Origin: an uncultured Candidatus Saccharibacteria bacterium
GTDB lineage: Bacteria; Patescibacteriota; Minisyncoccia; UBA6257; 2-01-FULL-56-20
Reading direction: 5' to 3'
DNA length: 64,000 nt
Assembly: GCA_964361095.1 (NCBI GenBank)
Contig: CAYHZA010000002.1
Coordinates: 49,594-113,593 of the forward strand
The notes under the pieces are model-generated. The model searched no databases, was not told where the DNA came from, and was given only the letters and a program-made list of their open reading frames with translations. Positions within the stretch are counted from its first letter, which is position 1. Every line of letters begins with the position of its first letter. The position numbers were made by a program, and so were the translations under genes. Positions 7,302-37,896 of the stretch are shown one piece after another.

Positions 7302-8558
7302 TTGCGGAGTAACGAAGCCGCTATTCCGAAGCGGCTTTTTCGTGATAGAATAGTTCTAATGTCCACGAAAGAAGATCAGATAAAAAATCTATTGACTCGC
7401 AACGTCGAGCAGATAATCGAGCGGGATTATTTCGAAAAAGCGCTCACGAGCGGGAAAAAGTTGCGCGTGAAGCTCGGCATTGATCCGACCTCTCCCGATC
7501 TCCACTTGGGGCACGCGGTGATTCTTCGGAAGCTCAAGGAGTTTCAGGATTTGGGGCATAAAATTGTTTTGATTATCGGCGACTTTACTGGGCAGATCGG
7601 TGATCCATCCGGAAGGACTGAGGCACGTAAAGTGCTCACTGAAAAAGAAGTGAAAGTGAATATGAAAAAGTATCTTGTGCAAGCGGCGAAAGTACTTGAT
7701 ATAAAAAAAGTTGAAATCATTTATAACAGTGCGTGGTTTAAGAAAGAAGGTATCGCGAAAATAGTTGAACTTTCGCGCGCCGGAAGCATCCAGCAAATAC
7801 TTCGACGCGCGGAATTCAAGAAACGCTTAGAAGAAGGAAACGACATCACGCTTCTCGAAGCGCTTTACCCGTTGTTTCAAGGATACGATTCGGTAATGGT
7901 GAAGGCTGATGTGGAAATCGGCGGGACCGATCAGACGTTCAACCTCCTGATGGGGCGGAGGGTCCAGCGCCATTTTGGAATGAAGGAACAGGACATTATT
8001 ACAACACCTCTCCTCGAGGGACTCGACGGCATAAAAAAAATGAGTAAGAGTTTGGGGAATTATATCGGGCTTACCGACACGCCCGATGATATGTTCGGGA
8101 AAATAATGTCTTTGCCCGACAATATGATGCGCCGTTATTTTTTGTTATGCACCGATCGTATGGAAAGCGAAGTGCAGAAGCTTGAAAAAGAACTTTCCCC
8201 GCGGGACCTAAAGGCGCGGCTCGCGTTTGAGATCGTAAAAATTTATCACGGAGAGAAAAAAGCGAAGGCCGCGGAGGAGAAATTTACGAAGATTTTTACG
8301 AAGAAAGATTTAAGCGCCGCCGAACTGCCGGAGTTCAAGGTCAAAACAAGAAAGCTTTCTGTGCTAGATTTGATTTTGTCTTCTCGGGTAGTCAATCACT
8401 CGTCTCTTAAAAGCAAAAGCGAAGCCCAACGGCTTATAAGCCAAGGTGCAATTCAAATAAACGGAGAAACCAAAAAAGATATGCGAGAAATAGTTGAATT
8501 AAAAGACGACGATATTTTAAAGATCGGAAAGAAGAATTTTTTCAGGATTAAAATATAG
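7302..8558 (+). CDS. tyrS: tyrosine--tRNA ligase (true start possibly at the 'MSTKED' Met, about 7359)
   Basis: HIGH motif 'HLGHAV', KMSKS motif 'KMSKSLGNYI', and a C-terminal S4-like domain. Confidence 0.9.
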   Translation: MRSNEAAIPKRLFRDRIVLMSTKEDQIKNLLTRNVEQIIERDYFEKALTSGKKLRVKLGIDPTSPDLHLGHAVILRKLKEFQDLGHKIVLIIGDFTGQIGDPSGRTEARKVLTEKEVKVNMKKYLVQAAKVLDIKKVEIIYNSAWFKKEGIAKIVELSRAGSIQQILRRAEFKKRLEEGNDITLLEALYPLFQGYDSVMVKADVEIGGTDQTFNLLMGRRVQRHFGMKEQDIITTPLLEGLDGIKKMSKSLGNYIGLTDTPDDMFGKIMSLPDNMMRRYFLLCTDRMESEVQKLEKELSPRDLKARLAFEIVKIYHGEKKAKAAEEKFTKIFTKKDLSAAELPEFKVKTRKLSVLDLILSSRVVNHSSLKSKSEAQRLISQGAIQINGETKKDMREIVELKDDDILKIGKKNFFRIKI

Positions 8559-8679
8559 GTAGCTCCTCGTTGTTCAACTCCGCCATTCGCCGACTGGCGG
8601 AGCGTTCACCCGAGACATTCTGGATTAATTTGCTTCATACCGCATTGCAGCGGTTGTTCGAGTCCTATATTTTTTTAGC

Positions 8680-9297
8680 TTAAACTGGATATTTCTTCCA
8701 ATATTTGTAGAGGATAGGGCTTTCTTTTTTTATTTTGATCGAAACGTCTGGTGATTTTAAATCCCTAAATCTTCCGAAGTAAAATTTCCAGATTTTATTT
8801 TTGGCAGGACGTGAAAGCAAAAATTTTACATGTTGCCAATGAAATTTTTGGAGAAAGACCAATATTGTTAGTGATTTTTTATCTTTATGGTTTTTAAGTA
8901 TTTTTTTAATATTTTCTGCCATAAATCTCTCGCGAAGATATATTCTTATCCACCAAAATAGATTAGTTGTTTTGTTGGGGTTTTTATTGTTGCATTGATA
9001 TACGTTAGCTTCATTTACTAAATCATAAGGGCCGTCAACGGCATAAAGGATAGTATGGTGATTCTCTCGTCTAATCTTCACGATGTTTGTCCACATATAT
9101 TTATCTGATCTTACCCACGGATTTTTCAAAAGTATCTCTTTAGTAATCTTCGGAGATTTTGTCCTTTGTTCATAAGAACCAGAAGTAGTTAGATATTCCA
9201 AAAGTATGATATCCGGCTTGTATTTTAAAACAGCTTTGGCTTGCCGTTTATCAATATATTTATCCTCTCTACAATTTACCTGGATTAAATTAATCAT
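8680..9297 (-). CDS. hypothetical protein, markedly AT-rich orphan gene
   Basis: 205-aa ORF rich in Lys/Asn/Ile, with much lower GC than its neighbours. It lies downstream of the tRNA-Gly 3' end next to a partial tRNA duplication. Confidence 0.45.
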   Translation of the reverse strand: MINLIQVNCREDKYIDKRQAKAVLKYKPDIILLEYLTTSGSYEQRTKSPKITKEILLKNPWVRSDKYMWTNIVKIRRENHHTILYAVDGPYDLVNEANVYQCNNKNPNKTTNLFWWIRIYLRERFMAENIKKILKNHKDKKSLTILVFLQKFHWQHVKFLLSRPAKNKIWKFYFGRFRDLKSPDVSIKIKKESPILYKYWKKYPV

Positions 9298-9348
9298 AAT
9301 TTGGCACTTGAAAATCTGCGCCTCGGATACTCGGCGCGATTTTCTAAG

Positions 9349-9367
9349 TGAGCGGGTAAGGGGAATC
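9349..9367 (-). repeat. 19-bp duplicate of the tRNA-Gly 3' end (att-like remnant)
   Basis: 'gagcgggtaaggggaatcg' is identical to 9497-9515 inside tRNA-Gly, in the same orientation, about 130 bp downstream of the tRNA 3' end. Confidence 0.5.
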
Positions 9368-9493
9368 GCCTCTCGTCTTTACTAAGACTTGAAACCTTCA
9401 CTCGCTCTTCGCGAGCTGCGGCCCGCGGTTCGATTTCCCCACTATTCTAATAAGACTCAAAAAGCGTATCTTACGATATGCCCTTGAGTCTTA

Positions 9494-9567
9494 TGGAGCG
9501 GGTAAGGGGAATCGAACCCCTGTCATCAGCTTGGAAAGCTGAGGTAATGCCATTATACGATACCCGC
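9494..9567 (-). tRNA. tRNA-Gly(TCC), CCA encoded
   Basis: Reverse complement GCGGGTATCGTATAATGGCATTACCTCAGCTTTCCAAGCTGATGACAGGGGTTCGATTCCCCTTACCCGCTCCA folds as a cloverleaf. Anticodon loop is TTTCCAA, giving anticodon UCC. Confidence 0.8.
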
Positions 9568-9689
9568 CTTTGCTCGCCGTAGCGAGCTCCGGCGAGCAAG
9601 CCTGCTGAGATCGCAAGGTGAGAACCTTGTAAATACTGTTTTAATCTACCATTGCCGCTTGCTAATTTCAATGAAATCGGGTAGAAATA

Positions 9690-10292
9690 ATGGAATCAAT
9701 GTTACATTTTTCCCGGCGCATAAAGCTTAGTATTGTATTTTTCGCGGTTGTTATCTCCGGCTATGTCGTTGTCCACTTGGTTGCAAGTTTGGGCGGCGTA
9801 CCGCAGGAATTTAACGAAGCGCGGCTCCAAGGGGCGCTTATTGCCCAGAATATCGTAGACCTTTCGAATAAATCGGCGAGCGATTTAGGGAAGATTAACG
9901 AACTTGACCGCCAGAGGAATTTTAACGAAGCGCTCGCGCTTACGACGCAGGTCATTGCGCAAAGCCAAGAAATTCGAAACCAGGCGGTAGCGCTTTCCTC
10001 GGAAATTGAAAAGATGACGAGGTCGCTTTCCGGCATCGGTTCGGATGAGGCGCGACAGGCGGCGCTTGAATCAATTACGAGCCGATTGGCGCTGATTAGC
10101 CGCCTCATTAACTACAGCGCGTCGCTTGAAAATCTTTTGAGCGTGTTGCGGAATCGTTTTGCCGGAGCGCCATCGAGCCATACGAAGGTTCAGGGAATGA
10201 TTGATCAGATCAATGCCGAGGTAACCGCGATCAATAGCTTCAACAATCAGGCTGTTCAGGCAATGGAGCGCTTTGACGCGTTGATAAAATAG
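9690..10292 (+). CDS. hypothetical membrane-anchored coiled-coil protein
   Basis: N-terminal TM helix 'LSIVFFAVVISGYVVVHLVASL' followed by heptad-like helical sequence. Confidence 0.45.
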   Translation: MESMLHFSRRIKLSIVFFAVVISGYVVVHLVASLGGVPQEFNEARLQGALIAQNIVDLSNKSASDLGKINELDRQRNFNEALALTTQVIAQSQEIRNQAVALSSEIEKMTRSLSGIGSDEARQAALESITSRLALISRLINYSASLENLLSVLRNRFAGAPSSHTKVQGMIDQINAEVTAINSFNNQAVQAMERFDALIK

Positions 10293-10320
10293 TTGAGGGA
10301 GGCGCAGGTCGTTATGGTAT

Positions 10321-10392
10321 GGGGGTGTAGCTCAACGGCAGAGCATTCGTCTTATACACGAACGGTTGGAGGTTCGAGTCCTCCCGCCCCCA
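10321..10392 (+). tRNA. tRNA with anticodon UAU (tRNA-Ile2-like, TAT)
   Basis: GGGGGTG-TA-GCTC-AACGGCA-GAGC-A-TTCGT-CTTATAC-ACGAA-CGGTT-GGAGG-TTCGAGT-CCTCC-CGCCCCC-A gives a clean cloverleaf. U33, A37 and anticodon TAT are present. No CCA is encoded. Confidence 0.7.
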
Positions 10393-10441
10393 CGATCTTA
10401 ATATGGAAAAGGTAAGGGACGCCTCGGCGGTTTCTGGCCAG

Positions 10442-10471
10442 CCCCGTTAGATATAGAATTATCTAACGGGG
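10442..10471. repeat. perfect 12-bp-stem palindrome in the tRNA/ftsH intergenic region
   Basis: ccccgttagata-tagaat-tatctaacgggg. Confidence 0.5.
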
Positions 10472-10503
10472 TGAAAGTCCAGGCGCACCCACTCAATTTT
10501 GCA

Positions 10504-10537
10504 CAAAAAATGCCCAAATAAATTGGGCATTTTTTTA
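10504..10537. terminator. bidirectional rho-independent terminator (ftsH on minus, tRNA on plus)
   Basis: AAAAAA-atgcccaa-ataaa-ttgggcat-TTTTTTT. Confidence 0.6.
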
Positions 10538-10566
10538 ACAGAGAGGCTACGATAAACTATTTTTTC

Positions 10567-12402
10567 CTATACCGCCATCGGTTTTATCTTAAAGGGCTTC
10601 AAGAGATTATAGAATTCGTCTTGTTCAAGCGTTTCTTTTTCCATAAGCGTCTTTGCTATTTTTTCGAGGGCGTTTTTGTTCACGCTGATAATCTTTTGCG
10701 CGGCTTTGTACGTGCGCTCAATGAAACTATGCACTTCGCTGTCGATTTCGGTCGCGACTTTTTCGGAGTAGTTTTTCTCCGTCGCGATTTCTCTGCCCAG
10801 AAATATCAGCTCCTCGGTTTTTCCGAAGGTCATGGGGCCCAATTTCTCGCTCATGCCGTATTTCGTAACGAGTCGTCGGGCGAGTTCTGAGGCTTCGCGC
10901 AGATCATTTGAGGCGCCGGTTGAAACATCGTTGAAAGTGAACTTTTCCGCGGCATATCCTCCCATCATGACGGCCATGTCATTTAAGAATTGATTTTTCG
11001 TTTTTAGGCGCTGTTCTTCAAGGGGAAGCTTCAAAGTATATCCGCCGGCCATTCCGCGGCTTATGATGGAGACTTTATGTACCGGGTCGGAATCTTTGAG
11101 CGATGCCGCGACAATCGCGTGGCCCGACTCGTGGTAGGCGGTGATCTCTTTCTCTCGCGTGGAAATGATGCGGCTTTTCCGCTCGGGTCCCAAGAGTACG
11201 CGCTCCACCGATTCCAAAAGGTCGTTTTCCGAAATCATTTTCGCCCCGCGTTTCGCGGCAAGGAGTGCCCCCTCGTTCATGAGATTCGCCAAGTCCGCGC
11301 CCGAAAATCCGGGTGTTCTCATTGATACTTTTTTGAAATCAATATTTTTTTCGATCGCTTTGCCGCGAGAGTGGATCTTGAGGATCGCTTCACGGTCGGC
11401 GAGATCGGGAAGGTCGAGCACGACGCGCCGATCAAAACGGCCCGGCCGAAGGAGCGCCGGATCGAGAATATCGGGGCGGTTCGTGGCGGCGAGGACTATC
11501 ACGCGCGTGTCGCGGTCGAAGCCGTCGAGTTCGACGAGGATCTGGTTCAAGGTTTGTTCGCGTTCATCGTTCCCTCCCCCGAGTCCTGCTCCCCGCTGGC
11601 GGCCCACCGCGTCAATTTCGTCCACGAATAGTATCGAGGGAGACGCTTTTTTCGCCGTGGCGAACGCGTCGCGTGTGCGAGCGGCGCCGACACCCACGAA
11701 CATTTCAACGAATTCGGACGCGGAGATGTGAAAAAAAGGAACATTGGCCTCTCCAGCGACGGCACGAGCAAGGAGCGTCTTCCCCGTTCCCGGCTGACCC
11801 ATAAGGAGCACGCCGCGCGGAATGCGCGCGCCAAGGTCGGTAAATTTCTTCGGGTTCTTCAAGAATTCCACGATTTCAATAAGATCATCCTTCGCTTCTT
11901 TGAGTCCCGCGACATCGCTAAACATGACTTTTTCTTTTCCGAGGTTCGAAAGACGGATGCTTGAGCGGCCGAAGTTAAACGCCTGATTGACGCCCGTTTT
12001 TGCCTGGCGCATCATAAGCCACAAAATAAAGCCGATAATAATAAGCGGAAGAAGTGTGGGAATCAAAATGCCTGCCCAAAATTGCCACCCCGACTGCTCT
12101 TCTATCGTCAAGGCCACCTTCTGGAGCGCCACGGAGTCAACGCCAAAGTTTTTAAGGGTTTCCGTAAGCCCCGCTTCCGCTTCTTTCTTCGAAACGGCTT
12201 TTACGCCATCGGCGAGCTTAATCTCGAGCGCGTCTCCGTTTATTTTGATTTCGGCTACCTGGCCGGCGTTGATCTGCTGGACGAGCTGATTGAGGGTAAA
12301 CACCTTTGGTGTTTCGCTGGTTTCAAGGAGAATCGAAAAGAAAAGCGAGATGAAGATTAAAGTCGCGATCGCCCACAGTACGTTTTTATAAAAGTGTGAC
12401 AT
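10567..12402 (-). CDS. ftsH: ATP-dependent zinc metalloprotease FtsH
   Basis: N-terminal TMs, AAA+ Walker A 'GQPGTGKT', SRH region, and zinc-binding 'HESGHAIV'. Confidence 0.9.
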
Positions 12403-12551
12403 AAATGTATTTAATTTTTCTTATATTCTAAAGGAAATTTTTTTATCGGTCAATATATATAGGTATGTACCGATGGTAATAGAGTTGCAAAATCCCCCAA
12501 GCCCGTGTAGATTTTCTAAGGAAAGCGGTGAGATTGAGCAGGAAGAAGCAT

Positions 12552-12627
12552 GGTGGGCGTAGCTCAATTGGTAGAGCTCCAGTTTGTGGCACTGGCGGTT
12601 GCGGGTTCAACTCCCGTCGCTCACCCA
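12552..12627 (+). tRNA. tRNA-His(GTG) with genome-encoded G-1
   Basis: G-GTGGGCG-TA-GCTC-AATTGGTA-GAGC-T-CCAGT-TTGTGGC-ACTGG-CGGTT-GCGGG-TTCAACT-CCCGT-CGCTCAC-C. Anticodon is GUG and the extra 5' G pairs with the discriminator C. Confidence 0.85.
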
Positions 12628-12667
12628 AAATACAAAGAACAGCGTATACGCTGTTCTTTGTATTTTG
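12626..12667 (+). terminator. rho-independent terminator after tRNA-His
   Basis: Perfect 19-bp stem caaaatacaaagaacagcg-tata-cgctgttctttgtattttg. Confidence 0.6.
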
Positions 12668-12799
12668 TCCTGAGCGTAGCGAGGGGCTACAATATGCATT
12701 GAAATGACGATGAACTATCTTAAATTTTCCACACTTACAAAAGAGAAAAAATGAAGATGCGGCAGGAACACGGTTGAGATTAGGGACAAATGTTTACAA

Positions 12800-13738
12800 A
12801 TGTTTACAAAATTTATCTCGCGTGGTAGATTAATAGTTATGAAAAAAGCATTACTTATTGGTTTTATTATTCTTATTTTGGGAGGAGGATATTCTATCGT
12901 AGTAGGTCTTCGTGGGTCAGATGATAAGAATGGAACTGCGCAAAAAATTGTGCCACAGAATACGTCTATTGATGAGAAATTATTCGCTCACTTCCTTATT
13001 GATGATGGTAAGTGCCGTGGGGTAAGAAATGATCTATATGCTATTGATGAGAAAGTGGTTGCTTGGATTGTTAACAAACCATGTCCGCCGGTTGTGTCCG
13101 AGGTAACACTTTGGGAAGGGAATCCATCTGCTGCTAATGGCCTACTTTGTACTTCTATTGCTACCAAACCAGATTTACCACAATGCCAAGATACACAATA
13201 CGAATCACTCTACGGCATTATTCGTGCAAACATCGACAAGAAAGATTTAGGGCTTGGTGCTTCTCATAGCATCAGGAAAATTACTTACAGCACCGAAGAG
13301 TTAGCTGTGGCGCGTGGGGATGTTAACCAACTATCATTTCGAGTGAGAGATTCAACGAGATTTTCTGATTTGGGTTCACTCAAGAGTGCCATTAATTTGT
13401 ACATATCAGAAGGCAACAAGCTCTCTGGATGCGGTTCGAGGACTCTCTATAAATCCAACATAGGGACTAAGGCATATGATGGAACTGGATGGCTACCGGT
13501 GAATTTGAAGAAAATCATATCAGGTTCTCCGTTCAATGAACTTCCTATCGATCCAGTGAATGATGCTAATTACTACTTTGTGTATGTTTGTAATTCCGCG
13601 ACGAACCAATATGAATTAAACGTGAACCTGCAGGGCGATCAATATGGGATGGGCGGGAGCCGCGATAAAGAATCAACCGATGGCGGAAATAACCCGGATG
13701 TATATGAATTGGGGACTGATTTAAGTCTTTTGCAATAG
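12800..13738 (+). CDS. hypothetical secreted/membrane-anchored Cys-containing protein
   Basis: 312 aa with N-terminal TM/signal 'KKALLIGFIILILGGGYSIVVGL'. No known domain. Lies directly downstream of tRNA-His. Confidence 0.5.
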   Translation: MFTKFISRGRLIVMKKALLIGFIILILGGGYSIVVGLRGSDDKNGTAQKIVPQNTSIDEKLFAHFLIDDGKCRGVRNDLYAIDEKVVAWIVNKPCPPVVSEVTLWEGNPSAANGLLCTSIATKPDLPQCQDTQYESLYGIIRANIDKKDLGLGASHSIRKITYSTEELAVARGDVNQLSFRVRDSTRFSDLGSLKSAINLYISEGNKLSGCGSRTLYKSNIGTKAYDGTGWLPVNLKKIISGSPFNELPIDPVNDANYYFVYVCNSATNQYELNVNLQGDQYGMGGSRDKESTDGGNNPDVYELGTDLSLLQ

Positions 13739-18650: not shown

Positions 18651-19466
18651 ATGATCATTGACGGGAAATTGATCGCCGATAAAATCGTCGGGGACTTAAA
18701 AGTTCGGCCACGCGTCGAGAAGTTCTTCGGCGCGGTTTTAGTAGGAGAGGATCCCGCCTCCGTTAATTTTTTGCGCCAAAAAGAAAAAGTCGCGAAGGAG
18801 CTCGGTATTGATTTTCGGCTTTATACATTGCCTGCGAGTATAACGACGGATGAGTTGCGCCGCGAGATTGGGCGTCTCGCCCAGCCGAAAAATTGCGGAG
18901 GGTTTATTGTTCAGCTTCCGCTTCCTGAGGCGTTGAATAAACACTATGTCTTAAATGCCATTCCGAAAGAAAAAGATATTGACGTATTGAGCGAAGCCGC
19001 GCTTGGTTCATTCTATTCCGGTCGGAACACTATCGTTCCTCCGTCGGTTGGGACCGTCAAGGAGATTTTAGGGATGCAGACGCGTGATCTTCGGGAACTC
19101 AAAGCAGTAATGGTGGGCGCGGGATTTTTAATCGGGAAGCCCGTCGGGTTCTGGCTTCAGAATCGCGTGGGAGAACTTACGGTCTTGGATAGTGAGGTGA
19201 AGGACCTTGAGGCGCGGCTCCGGGACGCCGATATCGTGATAAGCGGCGCCGGCCACCCCAAATTGTTTAGCGCGAAACATTTGAAGGAAGGAGCGACCGT
19301 CATCGACTTCGGATTTAACAAGATCAATGGGAAAATCGTGGGGGACTTTGACTCTGATGGCGCGGAGGAAAAGAATATTGCTTATACCAAAACACCCGGC
19401 GGTACCGGGCCGATTTTAGTCGCAGAATTGTTCAATAATTTTTATATACTCAATTCAAGATCCTGA
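18651..19466 (+). CDS. folD: bifunctional methylenetetrahydrofolate dehydrogenase/cyclohydrolase FolD
   Basis: 'IIDGKLIADKI...VLVGEDPASVNFLRQKEKVAKELGI' and the C-terminal NAD-binding 'VVGAGFLIGKPV'. Confidence 0.9.
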   Translation: MIIDGKLIADKIVGDLKVRPRVEKFFGAVLVGEDPASVNFLRQKEKVAKELGIDFRLYTLPASITTDELRREIGRLAQPKNCGGFIVQLPLPEALNKHYVLNAIPKEKDIDVLSEAALGSFYSGRNTIVPPSVGTVKEILGMQTRDLRELKAVMVGAGFLIGKPVGFWLQNRVGELTVLDSEVKDLEARLRDADIVISGAGHPKLFSAKHLKEGATVIDFGFNKINGKIVGDFDSDGAEEKNIAYTKTPGGTGPILVAELFNNFYILNSRS

Positions 19467-19569
19467 GCTATGCCGAAGGATGGCGAAACTTTTATCGCCT
19501 AAACGGCGTACGCTGAGCAAAGTCGAAATGTGGCGAAACTTTTTGAAAATTTCTATACGTTGAATTCAT

Positions 19570-21615: not shown

Positions 21616-21736
21616 ATCTTTTCCATCCTTTCTGGGCTTAAGCCCACGAGTTGTGGCTCTCTTTGCTTATGCGGAGAGAGCGGTTCTGTAAATACACTAA
21701 CCCCTAAACGGTTAAATTGTCAACCTCTTGTAATAG

Positions 21737-21836
21737 TGGGCACTGGGGGGATCGAACCCTCGGCCTACTCGGTGTCCCGCACAAAGTGGACGGTGCAGGG
21801 ATTGAACCTGCGGCCCCCTCGGTGTCCCGCTCTGTG
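21737..21836 (-). repeat. two tandem degenerate copies of a tRNA 3' half (anticodon-arm-like, variable, T-arm, acceptor 3' strand), most similar to tRNA-Val
   Basis: Minus-strand units GACACCGAGGGGGCCGCAGGTTCAATCCCTGCACCGTCCA and GACACCGAGTAGGCCGAGGGTTCGATCCCCCCAGTGCCCA compare with tRNA-Val ACACCGAGTAGGCCGCTGGTTCGATCCCAGCATTGCCCA. Neither unit has a D-arm or a 5' acceptor strand. Confidence 0.55.
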
Positions 21837-21937
21837 CGGGATTGCGGTTTGTTCCTAAAAATTCTACGTGCACTCGAATTTTTAGACAAACCGGGAATAA
21901 ACGAGGTGCTCTGCATCACCCCATTACATTTGGGCAG

Positions 21938-22009
21938 TGGGCAATGCTGGGATCGAACCAGCGGCCTACTCGGTGTAAACGAGTCGCTCTACCACTGAGC
22001 TAATTGCCC
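21938..22009 (-). tRNA. tRNA-Val(TAC)
   Basis: Reverse complement GGGCAAT-TA-GCTC-AGTGGTA-GAGC-G-ACTCG-TTTACAC-CGAGT-AGGCC-GCTGG-TTCGATC-CCAGC-ATTGCCC-A. Flanked by a 13-bp inverted repeat, ccccattacattt / aaatgtaatgggg. Confidence 0.8.
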
Positions 22010-23474: not shown

Positions 23475-23546
23475 GCCGCGGTAGCTCAGTGGCAGAGCGC
23501 GGCCCTGAAGAGGCCGGCGTCGGGTGTTCGATTCACCCCCGCGGCA
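23475..23546 (+). tRNA. tRNA-Phe(GAA)
   Basis: GCCGCGG-TA-GCTC-AGTGGCA-GAGC-G-CGGCC-CTGAAGA-GGCCG-GCGTC-GGGTG-TTCGATT-CACCC-CCGCGGC-A. Confidence 0.85.
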
Positions 23547-23570
23547 CATCAGAACGCAAGCGTCGTGACA

Positions 23571-23899
23571 TGGAGAAGCACCGAATCCATCGGTGTTTTT
23601 TTCATCTCTTCGATCGGTTCGTCCGACCGAGCCCCGGGGGGAATCGAAAACCCTCATGTAGTTATGGCTGTTCCGCGGGATGCAGACCGCTCCGTCTTCG
23701 GCTTCCGAAGATTCCGATCTGGGTCATGTAGGCCAGAATCGGCACGGCGCAGGGTACGCAGAGTTCAGCTTCGGCACTCGTTCCATACTCGACGAGCGTC
23801 GTCTGATCGTACATCCCGAACTCTATGCCACAACCACTACACAAACCTTCAATCATGGCGTTGTGATGTGATGAGTGTTTTCGACCTTTCGAAGATCAT
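23571..23899. repeat. 329-bp direct repeat, copy 1 (the same 329 bp recur at 24847..25175)
   Basis: All overlapping ORF-track translations are residue-for-residue identical between the copies. These include a 106-aa plus frame and the 64-aa and 63-aa small ORFs. Copy 1 starts 24 bp after the tRNA-Phe 3' end. Confidence 0.85.
23662..23856 (-). CDS. candidate small Cys4 zinc-ribbon protein encoded inside the repeat (second copy at 24938..25132)
   Basis: 64 aa 'MIEGLCSGCGIEFG...AELCVPCAVP' with CxxC-x22-CxxC spacing. No clear RBS, and the alternative antisense ORFs are Arg/Ser-rich, so coding status is uncertain. Confidence 0.3.
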   Translation of the reverse strand: MIEGLCSGCGIEFGMYDQTTLVEYGTSAEAELCVPCAVPILAYMTQIGIFGSRRRSGLHPAEQP

Positions 23900-24039
23900 G
23901 ATGGATCGAGAAAGGTGGTTGCGGTAGGAGGGAGATTCTGCCGGAGACGGCAAAGTAGCACGCCTTTACAACCCAAAGGAAGCTCGTTCAAAAAACGCCG
24001 GCTCTATCGCCGGTGTCTCAGGTTTAAGTCTCACGCGGG

Positions 24040-24267
24040 TTACGAATATTTTATTCCTGCACCGAACTCGTTCATGGCCATCACAACAGCGCGGGCAGTT
24101 TCTCGCTTCAGACGGTTTTTCCTCGGGATCATGGTCACGAAATGACCATCGGTCGTCTTCACCTTACAGTGCTTTCTTCCCTCGTAAATCTGAAAGCCAG
24201 CTCGCTTCGCGATCCGTTGGAGTTCTTCATACGAGCAATCGGCAGTCTTAACGTGGAGCTCCCGCAC
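24040..24267 (-). CDS. hicA: HicA-family mRNA interferase toxin
   Basis: 'GFQIYEGRKHCKVKTTDGHFVTMIPRKNRLKRETARAVVMAMNEFG' matches the HicA/YcfA-like pattern G.......GSH......G..VT.IP.......GT.RAIL. Confidence 0.65.
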   Translation of the reverse strand: MRELHVKTADCSYEELQRIAKRAGFQIYEGRKHCKVKTTDGHFVTMIPRKNRLKRETARAVVMAMNEFGAGIKYS

Positions 24268-24595
24268 GAGGGATGAGAAGTGTTAGTTTCTGGTCACGGC
24301 TCGGTGCGGGATAGGCATCCAAATGTTGAGCCGTCTCGACGGTTGGCAAGTAGGTAGGAACATAGGAAATGTACCTCTCGGGCACCTCAAGAAAAGTGCG
24401 CGCTGCATCATTGATCATCTCGATGAGTTCGGAGAAGGAATCAGCTTCGGTTCGACAACCGGCGAAGACTAGAATCTCTGCGCAGAAGCCCCCATCCTCG
24501 GATCGTTGCACCTGCACGGTGATTTCATGAGGAAACAAGGCGCGCAGCTTGCGGATTTCTTTTTTGTCTTTTTCTGTAAGTTTCTTTGCTCTCAT
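24248..24595 (-). CDS. hicB: HicB-family antitoxin (RNase-H-like fold N-domain)
   Basis: 'VQRSEDGGFCAEILVFAGCRTEADSFSELIEMINDAARTFLE' matches the HicB signature EDGG(Y/F)...P.LPGC.T.GDT.EEA. The gene overlaps hicA by 20 nt. Confidence 0.6.
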   Translation of the reverse strand: MRAKKLTEKDKKEIRKLRALFPHEITVQVQRSEDGGFCAEILVFAGCRTEADSFSELIEMINDAARTFLEVPERYISYVPTYLPTVETAQHLDAYPAPSRDQKLTLLIPRAGAPR

Positions 24596-24791
24596 ATTTT
24601 CATCGTACGCAAGAACAGCGGAAAGTCAATGTGCAAGCAAAGAACTCTGACTCACGCGGCAGCTATGCCCTCCTTTCCACCTTCGCCCGCTATGGTCCTA
24701 TGAGTTTTCAGCCTTGGGACCCTGGGACGCCCAGTATTTTCGGGACCTCGTTTGCCGTAAACCATGCGAGGAGATTCTCCAAAAGCTCCGT

Positions 24792-24826
24792 CAATGTTCG
24801 AGGTGTCCCACGATACGCGGCACCAC
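24792..24826 (+). repeat. 35-bp degenerate mimic of the tRNA-Phe 3' end (copy 1; copy 2 at 25984..26018)
   Basis: 'caatgttcgaggtgtcccacgatacgcggcaccac' is identical in both copies and shares 'tgttcga' and 'gcggcac' with the tRNA-Phe 3' end (gtgttcgattcacccccgcggcaca). Each copy is followed within about 20 bp by the 329-bp module or by the array end. Confidence 0.6.
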
Positions 24827-24846
24827 CTCGAACACGCTCGCTGTGG

Positions 24847-25175
24847 TGGAGAAGCACCGAATCCATCGGTGTTTTTTTCATCTCTTCGATCGGTTCGTCC
24901 GACCGAGCCCCGGGGGGAATCGAAAACCCTCATGTAGTTATGGCTGTTCCGCGGGATGCAGACCGCTCCGTCTTCGGCTTCCGAAGATTCCGATCTGGGT
25001 CATGTAGGCCAGAATCGGCACGGCGCAGGGTACGCAGAGTTCAGCTTCGGCACTCGTTCCATACTCGACGAGCGTCGTCTGATCGTACATCCCGAACTCT
25101 ATGCCACAACCACTACACAAACCTTCAATCATGGCGTTGTGATGTGATGAGTGTTTTCGACCTTTCGAAGATCAT
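24847..25175. repeat. 329-bp direct repeat, copy 2
   Basis: See copy 1. Begins 20 bp after tRNA-Phe mimic 1. Confidence 0.85.
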
Positions 25176-25272
25176 CATCGGGCAAGAACATCATCTGCGG
25201 TAGGAGGCTTAATTTGCCTTATTGGTAACAATTGACAGCCTTAGTCCCTTCTCGTAGGATTAAAGAATTACT

Positions 25273-25482
25273 ATGGTTAATGTAAACAATATCGATTTGA
25301 GAAAGATTAGCCAGGATCTTCGTAGCTTCGAGAATCAGTGGGTAGCGATTACCGAAGATACTCGCATCGTGGCATCCGGCCCTACCTATGGCGAAACCGT
25401 GCGCCAAGTGAAAGAGGGCAGCGACGTTGTCCTGCTTAAGGTACCATCCTTCGACGCTTCCCTCGCTCCTGTGGAGGCATGA
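25273..25482 (+). CDS. DUF5678-like small protein (69 aa)
   Basis: 'NQWVAITEDTRIVASGPTYGETVRQVK' resembles the DUF5678 core that typically precedes retropepsin-like proteases. Its stop overlaps the next gene's start (ATGA). Confidence 0.45.
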   Translation: MVNVNNIDLRKISQDLRSFENQWVAITEDTRIVASGPTYGETVRQVKEGSDVVLLKVPSFDASLAPVEA

Positions 25483-25898
25483 AGTTTGAGTATCAAAAAT
25501 TTATCCTCGGTAGTCACGACCCTCGAAAGCCGCTGGTGGCACGGCCGCTCATACCGGTCTCGCTCCATGGGAATGGAATGAAAACCCGGAGTCCCTATTT
25601 TGCTCTCCTTGATTCCGGAGCGGATCGAGTTATCTTCCCGGCCGATCTTGCCGCAGAGGTTGGTATCCCGGACATCGAGAAAGGAGAGCTCGAACCTGCG
25701 GTTGGTATCGCTGGCCAACGGGCCGATGTCTACTATCATAACCTTGCGCTTCAAGTTCTTGGGGACACACGGGTCCTTCCCACGGCCGTGGGATTCTCCC
25801 GGACAGTGTCATTGCCTATTCTCGGTCGGTCGTTTTTCAAGCATTTCAAAGTAGTTACCTTCTCAGAATCCAAGGAGGAAGTAGAGCTCAAGAATTAA
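25479..25898 (+). CDS. retropepsin-like (clan AA) aspartic protease
   Basis: Catalytic 'ALLDSGADRVIFPADLAAEVGI' (D-S-G-A motif) in a 139-aa protein. Confidence 0.6.
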   Translation: MKFEYQKFILGSHDPRKPLVARPLIPVSLHGNGMKTRSPYFALLDSGADRVIFPADLAAEVGIPDIEKGELEPAVGIAGQRADVYYHNLALQVLGDTRVLPTAVGFSRTVSLPILGRSFFKHFKVVTFSESKEEVELKN

Positions 25899-26022
25899 GA
25901 GGATGCACGGTATATTGTAACCACTACTGCGACTTCTGCGGATTCCCCACAATCCACTTCACGAGTTCCCTCAAAAGCCGATCCAATGTTCGAGGTGTCC
26001 CACGATACGCGGCACCACAACT

Positions 26023-26048
26023 AAAAAACAGCCGACTGGCTGTTTTTT
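26023..26048. terminator. bidirectional terminator (rpsA on minus; end of the cassette array)
   Basis: AAAAAA-cagcc-gact-ggctg-TTTTTT. Confidence 0.6.
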
Positions 26049-26054
26049 AGTTAC

Positions 26055-36741: not shown

Positions 36742-36822
36742 GGGCAGGTGGCGAAATGGCAAACGCACTAGCTTTAGGAGCTAGCGCCGCAAGGCTTGTG
36801 GGTTCAAGTCCCACCCTGCCCA
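36742..36822 (+). tRNA. tRNA-Leu(TAG), class II with a long variable arm
   Basis: GGGCAGG-TG-GCG-AAATGGCAAA-CGC-A-CTAGC-TTTAGGA-GCTAG-CGCCGCAAGGCTT-GTGGG-TTCAAGT-CCCAC-CCTGCCC-A. Confidence 0.8.
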
Positions 36823-36846
36823 CAAAAAGAGACCCCCAATTCGTTC

Positions 36847-37896
36847 TTATTTTCCCCCTCTTCTGCGTCCGTGAAATGATTTGTGGATTTCCCGCAGTTC
36901 TTTATTGGTAATGTGGGTGTAGATCTGCGTTGTGTTTATATTCGCGTGGCCCAAAAGTTCTTGGACCGAACGGAGATCGGCTCCGTTTATCAAAAGATCC
37001 GTCGCAAAGCTATGCCGGAGTTGGTGAGGATGTATTTTTTTTGGTATTCCCGACGCGATGGCGCGGTAATTCATAAGTCGTTGCACCGAGCGCGGTGTAA
37101 TTCTGCCGAGAATATTTTTTTCGTTTTTCGCGAGACTCACGAAAAGCGCCGATTCGGTGTCGCCGCGTTTTTCGAGATATTCTTTTATCGTTTTTTTTGC
37201 CCGATCCGAGAGAAAGACGACGCGTAATTTGTCGCCTTTTCCGCGGACGGTAAGTTCTCCTCGATTGAGATCGACATAGCGGTCGAGCGAGCAGAGCTCC
37301 GAGAGACGCAAACCGGTCGAGAAAAATGTTTCGAGTATCGCTTGATCACGCAACGCGCGAAAGTTCATTTTGGTCGGCCGCGCGAGGAGGCGTTCGAGGT
37401 CTTCGTAGTCGAGAACCTCGATTTGCCGACTCGGCACTTTAGGGAGTTCTATTTTTTCCGGCGCGAGAACTTTCATGTCGCGCCGCGTGAGATACTTCAA
37501 GAAATTGCGAAGCGCGATGACGTAATATCCTTGGGTAACTTTTTTAAGCGATTGGCGTATTTCGTCGGAGTTCCTTACGGCAACGGGGCGGGCAAGATGA
37601 AGTCGAAAGGCGCGGACGATCGTTTCGGTGATCTGTGAAGGAGAAGATATCTTTGCGAACTTAAGGAACTCCTTCAGATAGCGTTCATAATTTTCCCGCG
37701 TTTTCGGTGAACGGTTTTTTTCGATCTCCAAATAATTCAAATATTCTTCAAGGTAGGCTTCAATCGAGGATGCCATAACATCATTGTACTCCGTGGCTGA
37801 GGGAAGCGACAATGACATCTTTTGCGTTGAATAAGTATCATAGTAAATGGGCATCATCTTCGAGAACCGCCCCTTTATTTTCCCTATTCCTTGCAT
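36847..37896 (-). CDS. tyrosine site-specific recombinase, XerC/XerD family (or integrase)
   Basis: C-terminal catalytic 'HQLRHSFATDLLINGADLRSVQELLGHANINTTQIYTHI' and an N-terminal SAM-like core-binding domain. It sits 25 bp downstream of the tRNA-Leu 3' end. Confidence 0.8.
   Translation of the reverse strand: MQGIGKIKGRFSKMMPIYYDTYSTQKMSLSLPSATEYNDVMASSIEAYLEEYLNYLEIEKNRSPKTRENYERYLKEFLKFAKISSPSQITETIVRAFRLHLARPVAVRNSDEIRQSLKKVTQGYYVIALRNFLKYLTRRDMKVLAPEKIELPKVPSRQIEVLDYEDLERLLARPTKMNFRALRDQAILETFFSTGLRLSELCSLDRYVDLNRGELTVRGKGDKLRVVFLSDRAKKTIKEYLEKRGDTESALFVSLAKNEKNILGRITPRSVQRLMNYRAIASGIPKKIHPHQLRHSFATDLLINGADLRSVQELLGHANINTTQIYTHITNKELREIHKSFHGRRRGGK

Follow-up and report, generated by a model that had tools for sequence, protein, structure and literature searches.

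Integrative elements that accrete in tandem at tRNA genes, and with them the cis-mobilizable elements (CIMEs), have been reviewed (PMC5704250) and ICEberg 2.0 (PMC6323972) is a catalogue of such integrative elements; a second system for comparison is that of the tycheposons of Prochlorococcus islands, including their degraded remnants (bioRxiv 10.1101/2020.12.28.424599). We analysed a 64,000-nucleotide stretch of contig CAYHZA010000002.1 from an uncultured groundwater member of the Patescibacteria (assembly GCA_964361095.1), in which a short module occurs twice behind a tRNA-Phe gene, once at the start of each of two small units that together form an island; this whole stretch is referred to as the window, and coordinates are those of the window unless a contig is named. 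Each copy of the module contains a minus-strand open reading frame (ORF) for a 64-aa micro-protein with four paired cysteines (Cys4) and, beyond the end of the ORF, an inverted copy of part of the tRNA. CIMEs and tandem accretion at tRNA genes, together with degraded tycheposons, are the described systems closest to this locus in behaviour; integrons and elements that exploit Xer recombinases are looser parallels. What is of a known kind here is a small integrase-less island at a tRNA gene, and what is new is the conserved module, its orphan zinc-ribbon gene and the retargeted inverted tRNA arm.

The explanation that we favor, with a probability of roughly 55%, identifies the module as one end, the tRNA-proximal one, of a retargetable, integrase-less mini-island whose micro-protein is probably an accessory or regulatory factor. 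The module would measure ~400 bp (a spacer plus 23571-23943, and again 24827 to ~25218) and would make up the end nearest the tRNA in small islands, mobile now or in the past, at tRNA 3' ends. Two such units would lie in tandem behind tRNA-Phe, each consisting of a module, a self-contained toxin-antitoxin-like cargo and an attachment-site (att)-like core ending in CGCGGCACCA. Within the module, a terminator hairpin (H1) would re-terminate the tRNA after insertion; the Cys4 (zinc-ribbon-type) gene on the opposite strand would read towards the tRNA and have a conserved upstream control region; and the symmetric non-coding DNA with its target-matched inverted arm would serve as the attachment-site arm of the element. 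A recombinase supplied in trans would move the element, and the micro-protein could be an autoregulator or a factor resembling a recombination directionality factor (RDF). Taken separately, the element-end or att-arm reading of the module is likely, whereas a role for the micro-protein in recombination is doubtful.

The islands share with CIMEs the lack of an integrase, flanking att-type repeats derived from a tRNA 3' end and a tandem arrangement, and they presumably depend on a recombinase supplied in trans to move. Unlike CIMEs, the units are tiny (~1.2 kb each) and share a conserved end-module that encodes a micro-protein and carries the target in an inverted copy; neither a parental integrative and conjugative element or integrative and mobilizable element nor a cognate integrase is known for the island, and its host is a Patescibacteria genome. 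Tycheposons, as the island here, carry cargo, target tRNA genes and, in streamlined genomes, form arrays in tandem that include partial tRNA repeats; they are defined by integrases and replicative genes, neither of which is present in the island, and we know of no Cys4 micro-protein module described for them. In integron arrays, small cassettes that often encode toxin-antitoxin systems each end in a repeated recombination element, which is the likeness to the island, and the island site may share with integron attC sites a reliance on folded-strand structure over sequence. Unlike integrons, the island has no IntI integrase and is anchored on a tRNA end rather than on attI; its repeat is ~400 bp long and holds a gene, its cargos lie on opposite strands, and no R''/R' GTTRRRY boxes were seen. 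The short imperfect palindrome of 60-140 bp and the co-oriented cassettes that mark attC arrays are absent from the island.

In the folded attP(+) of CTXphi, two inverted target-like sites ~90 nt apart fold into a forked hairpin. Like CTXphi and the other integrative mobile elements exploiting Xer (IMEX), the island has inverted target-like sites (85 nt apart here), no recombinase of its own and an Xer-type enzyme in the same genome, and the island may conceivably encode a small helper protein, as TLCphi does with its activator XafT. Unlike in CTXphi, the target is the 3' end of tRNA-Phe or tRNA-Leu and not dif, and the host tRNA itself supplies one of the two stem arms; unlike in CTXphi and TLCphi, there are no filamentous-phage genes, and the micro-protein has no similarity to XafT-type helix-turn-helix (HTH) proteins. 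The micro-protein resembles the Xis, AlpA and Cox proteins in that it is small, is encoded next to an att-like site, is read towards that site and has a basic C-terminal tail; these families are winged-helix or HTH proteins, and unlike them the micro-protein is a Cys4 protein with no sequence match to them and no adjacent integrase.

The case for an insertion comes from relatives of the source genome, which by their S1 genes belong to Liptonbacteria/Paceibacterota. In the closest relative with a usable contig (L029, S1 79% identical), tRNA-Phe is followed by a terminator hairpin, a short inverted pseudo-T-arm, ~190 nt without an ORF, the direct repeat ACCCCCGCGGCACCA and then the homologous terminator and S1. 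The junction between CGCGGCACCAC and the terminator in the window (26018/26019) is homologous to the L029 junction; because the two share it, the ancestral arrangement was tRNA-Phe(CCA)-terminator-S1, with 23548-26018 as an insertion at the acceptor end. Direct repeats of the tRNA 3' end flank the inserted DNA: CGCGGCAC(CA) is present at 23540-47, 24816-25 and 26008-17. The insert is made up of two tandem units of module, two-gene cargo and att-like core. In the more distant relatives L025-L028, tRNA-Phe is inverted and a different island, which has a large serine recombinase, comes after it; the presence of different islands at the same tRNA gene marks the site as a hot spot. We also considered whether the L029 insert is a miniature module and rejected this, as only its inverted T-arm matches (p ~0.04).

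Each unit ends in an att-like core region (D3a, D3b), of which D3a closes with CGCGGCACCAC as the island end does. At the unit junction, TGTTCGAGGTG (24795-24805) and CACCTCGAACA (24824-24834) form a perfect 11-bp inverted repeat, which brackets an 18-nt segment with the CGCGGCAC core common to the tRNA and looks like a recombinase core site. The possibility that D3 is a decayed 3' half of tRNA-Phe was rejected on its overall similarity, which is not significant, and a search of IMG/VR with the D3 core gave no match. A 7-nt attR candidate in contig L005 was not significant either. TCGA/TTCGA arm-type sites are ~3-fold enriched (top 2% of windows) but few in L002, and were set aside as too weak.

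The module recurs in a second, very distant lineage at a different tRNA. The gene for a homologue of the micro-protein (P0003) adjoins tRNA-Leu(GAG) in contigs L002 and L005 with the geometry found in the window, i.e. the 3' end of the ORF faces the 3' end of the tRNA at a distance of ~110 nt. DNA homology of the window to these contigs covers 23572-23943, so that the homologous unit around copy 1 runs ~44 bp beyond the 329-bp block that is identical between the two copies. Within this unit the non-coding flanks are better conserved than the gene: identity between the window and L002 is 72% in the upstream flank, 70% in the downstream flank and 59% in the first 50 codons of the coding sequence. 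Hairpin H1, which directly follows the spacer and was missed by a simple terminator scan, is kept in L002 with two compensatory pairs (C-G to U-A and A-U to G-C). Hairpin H2 reads GGTCGG-ACGAR-CCGATC on the ORF strand, and an outer stem around it survives only via G-U pairs on the plus strand. Upstream of the ORF, AAAGGTCGAAAAC (23877-23889) is conserved in all three lineages in which the gene is known; AAAGGTCGRAAAC, located ~20-33 nt ahead of the ATG, occurs in L002 and in the two window copies, and with one substitution in the third lineage (contig L006); CCTCCTACCGCA (23920-23931) and GGCAGA (to 23943) are shared with L002 and not recognisable in L006. The conserved pattern further upstream is GGCAR-N5-CCTCCTASCGC. 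DNA motif scans with TCGGTCGGACGANCCGATC and with GGTTTTCGA...TCGGTCGGACGA gave only chance matches inside unrelated coding genes.

Comparison of the inverted tRNA copies carries the argument for retargeting. The copy in the window starts 9 nt after the ORF stop codon; read on the ORF strand, GGGTTTTCGATTCCCCCCGGGGC agrees with tRNA-Phe GGGTGTTCGATTCACCCCCGCGGC in 21 of 24 aligned columns, and the score of this inverted match (32) was not reached in any of 2000 shuffles. At the same position in L002, GAGGTTTTCGAATCCTCTCCCGG matches that contig's own tRNA-Leu, GAGGTTCGAATCCTCTCCTGG (score 31, again 0 of 2000 shuffles), and cross-comparisons of each inverted segment with the tRNA of the other lineage were not significant. 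The module's pseudo-tRNA copy is matched to its target tRNA: Phe here and Leu in L002. In both copies the T-loop is enlarged by one or two T, and the L002 copy runs on into the variable arm, overlapping the ORF in its final seven codons, which helps to explain why the C-terminal tails differ between lineages. The partner arm in the window is the T-arm and acceptor strand of tRNA-Phe itself (23522-23545), such that the real tRNA end and the inverted copy make an interrupted ~24-bp stem around an 85-nt loop, and the attL region folded as a single strand has z-scores of -3.7 (window) and -4.8 (L002). Of the window's eight tRNAs, tRNA-Phe stands out clearly by its downstream inverted copy, and tRNA-Gly has a weaker one. 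By analogy with CTXphi attP or integron attC, the covariation, which is what is most unusual about the module, could mean that the site is read as a folded or base-paired structure; it could instead reflect fold-back of the ORF transcript on antisense tRNA, or the footprint of a copying step during integration.

The first-pass annotation of the module, which was made from the sequence alone, had already described a T-arm-like segment, a fixed position beside an att-like core and a possible attP arm-binding region. The segment is genuinely tRNA-derived, the fixed position at a tRNA 3' end holds in two very distant lineages, and the att-arm idea is largely borne out. Three features had escaped it, namely the conservation of the flanks above that of the coding sequence, the covariation of the pseudo-T-arm with its target and the ~44-bp extension to 23943. 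Its alternative of a structured RNA was not supported: Rfam at the gathering threshold gave tRNA genes only (up to an E-value of 10, also weak sub-threshold snoRNA or miRNA chance matches) and folding of the whole module was unremarkable (z -1.3 and -2.1). The GC-rich hairpin that it had named (cttcgg-ctt-ccgaag, at 23697-23711) does exist, within the variable C-terminal tail of the ORF, but three substitutions break it in L001, a contig of a 99.9%-identical strain, and it is absent from L002; we rejected it on these grounds. These three substitutions are clustered at 23697-23705 (CTTCGGCTT versus CTCCGCATT) and are the sole differences between the two strains within the module; the window version gives a perfect hairpin, a pattern typical of quasi-palindrome template-switch mutation.

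The 64-aa ORF is very probably a real gene under purifying selection. A word-indexed protein search returned a 98%-identical copy as its sole match, and phmmer against 1.84 billion representatives added two distant small homologues with 38-43% identity, P0003 (67 aa, E 1.6e-9) and P0004 (83 aa, E 3.8e-7); a further hit, P0002 (1597 aa), was rejected as a repetitive false positive. In the alignment, M1, C6, C9, C33 and C36 are invariant, and G8, G10, E12, F13, D17, G25, E29, E31 and L32 are among the other residues kept. Residues 1-50 contain no indel; beyond them, the C-terminal tails are variable. Between the window and L002 the coding sequence differs at 25, 11 and 25 sites in the first, second and third codon positions; the Nei-Gojobori method gives pN 0.34, pS 0.67 and a ratio of nonsynonymous to synonymous rates (dN/dS) of ~0.26, and the other two lineage pairs give 0.26 and 0.36.

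These data bear on most of what the first-pass annotation had proposed for the coding content of the module. The ORF exists on the minus strand of both copies, as it had stated, and has the two CxxC motifs, with a spacing of C6-x2-C9-x23-C33-x2-C36 rather than the CxxC-x22-CxxC reported; its observation that there is no obvious ribosome-binding site extends to the three lineages. Its candidate Cys4 micro-protein survives the check on homologues that it had proposed, with all four cysteines kept, no indel over 50 codons and a dN/dS of ~0.3. It had also judged the plus frames non-coding, and the 120-aa and 205-aa plus-strand ORFs can indeed be dismissed: they have no Pfam match, and all plus-strand frames are closed in L002. 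The family assignments fared less well. No similarity to an excisionase or RDF, or to any other family, was found in Pfam, PHROGs or NCBIfam, PADLOC and PDB sequences likewise gave no family match, and the 64-aa peptide matched no zinc-ribbon entry in Pfam, NCBIfam or PDB. The two CxxC knuckles are present in all homologues, and neither a described zinc-ribbon family nor a confident zinc-ribbon fold emerged from these libraries or from the AlphaFold model; the best Pfam, NCBIfam or PDB match of any family member was a ZZ finger (E 0.56, in one member). Peptide-pattern scans of GTDB representative genomes, JGI metagenomes and IMG/VR found zero family members, and tblastn against PLSDB and INPHARED found nothing relevant. 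Judged by its position, size and cysteine pattern only, the micro-protein probably binds DNA as a small accessory or regulatory factor. The features of the locus are collected in Table 1.

Table 1. Features of the tRNA-Phe island, in window coordinates.
Feature	Coordinates	Strand	Description
tRNA-Phe(GAA)	23475..23547	+	Integration target; ARAGORN, Rfam
Spacer A	23548..23570	+	23 nt, tRNA end to identical block; loose likeness to spacer B and to the L002 spacer
Module copy 1	23571..23899		329-bp block, 100% identical to copy 2
H1, intrinsic-terminator-like hairpin	23572..23602	+	CACCGA-ATCCA-TCGGTG followed by T7, in tRNA direction; z -4.0
H2 hairpin	23612..23628		GATCGG-TTCGT-CCGACC; core TCGGTCGGACGARCCGATC (ORF strand) invariant between window and L002
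Inverted pseudo-tRNA segment	23631..23653	-	Copy of tRNA-Phe T-arm and 3' acceptor strand, one extra loop T
Cys4 micro-protein gene, copy 1	23662..23856	-	64-aa ORF; homologues; codon-level selection
Conserved ORF-upstream region	23857..23943	-	72% identity to L002; no Shine-Dalgarno
Cargo A	23998..24629	-	Promoter-like site 24629-24602; HicB-like 24248-24595; HicA-like 24040-24267; terminator 24013-23998
D3a, att-like core region	24771..24826	+	56-nt repeat; TGTTCGA plus CGCGGCACCA, core 24816-23
Spacer B	24827..24846	+	20 nt, between D3a and module copy 2
Module copy 2	24847..25175		Homology onward to ~25218; holds 64-aa ORF copy 2, 24938-25132 (-)
Cargo B	25232..25898	+	Promoter-like site 25232-25260; DUF5678 25273-25482; retropepsin-like aspartyl protease 25479-25898
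D3b, attR-like island end	25963..26018	+	CGCGGCACCAC, then host bidirectional terminator (26019-26052), then S1 gene

Several observations weigh against our preferred explanation. No cognate recombinase for the island was identified in the 64-kb window, and no empty site or excised form was demonstrated; look-ups via the flanking S1 and NUDIX genes found no empty site in near-identical strains. D3 resembles tRNA-Phe only via TGTTCGA and CGCGGCAC(CA). Identity falls abruptly from 100% to ~60% just outside both edges of the 329-bp block, and the one contig with an apparently single module (L001) can be explained by assembler collapse of the repeat. For the gene, there is no Shine-Dalgarno sequence in any of the three lineages and no recognisable promoter; there is no Xis/RDF or DNA-binding family match, the AlphaFold model from a 4-sequence alignment is uninformative (pLDDT 52), and the family comprises three sequence clusters only in a profile search of 5.8 billion proteins. 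One of these, the homologue on L006, lacks a tRNA on a contig of 1,089 nt that reaches ~750 nt past the ORF stop.

Some of these points are what would be expected if the ORF were an ordinary small host or cargo gene, its flanks a promoter and a terminator, and the 329-bp identity the result of recent conversion or unequal crossing-over. The abrupt block with ~60% flanks does resemble a conversion tract (it suggests recent conversion or recombination within the module), the L006 gene has no tRNA on its short contig, and no recombinase is linked to the ORF. We nevertheless consider this account unlikely: flanks that exceed the coding sequence in conservation across homologues of 38% identity, tRNA-end geometry repeated in two distant lineages and a region demonstrably inserted and bounded by tRNA-end repeats are not features of such a gene, and promoter or terminator function fails to explain a target-matched inverted tRNA copy. 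That copy is central to a different proposal, in which the module is a structure-dependent folded-strand att site: the tRNA 3' end, real or copied, and the inverted arm anneal as a forked hairpin when the DNA is single-stranded, and a host Xer-type enzyme recombines the hairpin, so that the micro-protein is the sole element-encoded factor and retargeting needs only a new complementary arm. In its favor, the arm covaries with its target across Phe and Leu, the arms, 85 nt apart, enclose three small hairpins with the single-strand z-scores of -3.7 and -4.8 given above, an inverted pseudo-T-arm is also found in ORF-less inserts at tRNA-Phe of L029 and at tRNA-Gly of the window, the islands have no integrase, and the sole recombinase found in the 64 kb is Xer-type. 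However, the attP-like junction (D3a plus module copy 2) folds into an 11-bp hairpin and not into a long stem, genes for single-strand replication or transfer are not present, the targets are tRNA ends rather than dif, only two lineages are informative, and a copying mechanism or RNA-level pairing could equally give the covariation; this proposal too is improbable. The wider possibility, of an undescribed class of minimal tRNA-targeting cassettes in Patescibacteria with a reprogrammable inverted arm, a folded or base-paired site, host Xer-type recombination and integron-like toxin-antitoxin arrays without a dedicated integrase, in which a 64-aa zinc-ribbon protein is the sole conserved gene, we hold to be a long shot. 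An RNA-level role is very unlikely. Here the ORF mRNA would read into antisense tRNA and its tRNA-mimic 3' untranslated region would fold back, which could stabilize or terminate the transcript or neutralize the antisense RNA, or else the module would be a structured non-coding RNA. The lack of a minus-strand terminator, a mimic that begins 9 nt past the stop codon, an outer H2 stem retained only by plus-strand G-U pairs and a minus-strand fold of z -2.1 fit such a role; the absence of an Rfam family, the plus-strand terminator H1 upstream of the pairing partner, the unconserved cttcgg hairpin and the retention of the inverted arm by ORF-less inserts do not, and there are only two sequences in which to test the covariation.

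A last alternative concerns the assembly, i.e. that the tandem is an artefact of a single module, or of a chromosome with one module plus a free circle of 1,276 bp. Self-comparison of the window gave 329 identical positions out of 329 between 23571-23899 and 24847-25175, as the first-pass annotation had it, and a more sensitive self-comparison extended the homology to 23931/25207 (361 bp at 96.7%); no third copy of the block was found within the window. De Bruijn graphs cannot tell a tandem from a single copy plus a circle, and the same assembly graph is expected for both. Contig L001 covers tRNA-Phe, the module and the DUF5678 cargo and passes the module once, which could be taken as an empty site or a polymorphism. 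Contig L007 (Hainich H51 groundwater, ERZ1292641), from the same sample as L001, corresponds to 23845-24901, from the end of one module through the HicAB-like cargo and D3a to the start of the next, and matches the 947 bp between the modules exactly, extended at either end by 55 nt of module sequence. This is the product expected of a k=55 graph that collapses the 329-bp repeat into a loop, and L001 is therefore no proof of polymorphism; we rejected it as such. On the other side, contig L008 (Logan, ERR3858113) corresponds to 23870-24821, and both junction types recur in two further independent datasets at similar coverages (3x and 2x). The tandem layout is consistent with these datasets, and the arrangement is not peculiar to one assembly. 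An artefact is highly improbable as an explanation, and since the module borders both cargos under either arrangement, the finding holds in both cases.

If our preferred explanation of an integrase-less element end is correct, the module would have some practical value. Patescibacteria (the candidate phyla radiation) have tiny genomes in which gain and loss of accessory genes are poorly understood, and the end-module could help to locate islands of cassette size beside tRNA genes and to study how such islands move when they have no integrase. The target-matched arm suggests that the choice of site is written in the DNA of the element and not in a protein. The gene adds a conserved micro-protein family mostly missed by gene callers and databases. 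Should the module prove to be no more than the end of a decayed element plus a small gene for a regulator, the gain is a modest one of annotation.

The cargos have their own expression signals. Since each has a promoter-like site and cargo A also a terminator, the module (53% GC, compared with 48.5% for the window) stands as a separate unit. The likeness of cargo A to HicAB is a resemblance only: its Pfam scores lie below gathering (HicA_toxin 18.2 against 27, HicB 13.9 against 27), and there was no NCBIfam or PADLOC match to the family either. In its upstream region (24595-24629) 7 nt separate the end of the promoter-like -10 hexamer from the HicB-like ATG, with no Shine-Dalgarno sequence, and the mRNA may be leaderless. 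No recombinase or transfer gene was found inside the island in the ORF list or by Pfam, and there is no integrase in the island or its near flanks. The sole recombinase found in the window is an Xer-type gene at 36847-37896, 13 kb from the island, which we rejected as the island integrase, no repeat of its neighboring tRNA-Leu end being present elsewhere in the window. Its product, a tyrosine recombinase of 349 aa, scores above the NCBIfam cut-off for XerA and below those for XerC and XerD, and reaches 115 against an integron-integrase cut-off of 265. The gene ends 24 nt from the 3' end of tRNA-Leu(TAG) (region 36742-37896), tail-to-tail like the micro-protein gene and tRNA-Phe.

Other observations concern the surroundings of tRNA genes in the window and in the compared contigs. 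In L025, from relatives with 74% S1 identity, the island at 7567-13107 carries the large serine recombinase gene and inverted repeats of 149 nt and 90 nt, and ends at tRNA-Pro. L001 (4536-4701, reverse strand) and L025 (7163-7493) each have a small ORF directly adjoining tRNA-Phe at its 5' end; its translation, judged by eye only, is of GIY-YIG type, and L025 also has a 14-nt duplication of the 5' end of the tRNA. Where these two contigs, of a 99.9%-identical strain and of a 74%-S1 relative, carry this ORF, the window has a NUDIX gene. Just beyond the distal edge of the module homologue in L002 lies an IS481-like insertion sequence (545-1536; rve transposase, inverted repeats GTGCACACACATATGGCGGACT), which is absent from L005.

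Behind tRNA-Gly (9494-9567, minus strand) there is a mini-insert of ~140 nt (9350-9493) with a terminator-like hairpin and an inverted pseudo-T-arm at 9427-9440 (13 of 14 matches; 2 of 500 shuffles were as good). It ends in an 18-nt direct repeat of the tRNA 3' end (GATTCCCCTTACCCGCTC, 9350-9367), and its architecture is that of the ORF-less 190-nt insert at tRNA-Phe in L029. A 31-nt direct repeat (CTGAGCTATGCCGAAGGATGGCGAAACTTTT, 81% identical, 50 nt apart) lies at 19463-19543, just after a folD-like gene. Near tRNA-Val (21937-22009, minus strand), two extra 41-nt copies of its 3' half (21735-21775 and 21785-21825; 88% and 76%) break exactly in the anticodon loop, and look like attR-type scars of elements with an anticodon-loop crossover.

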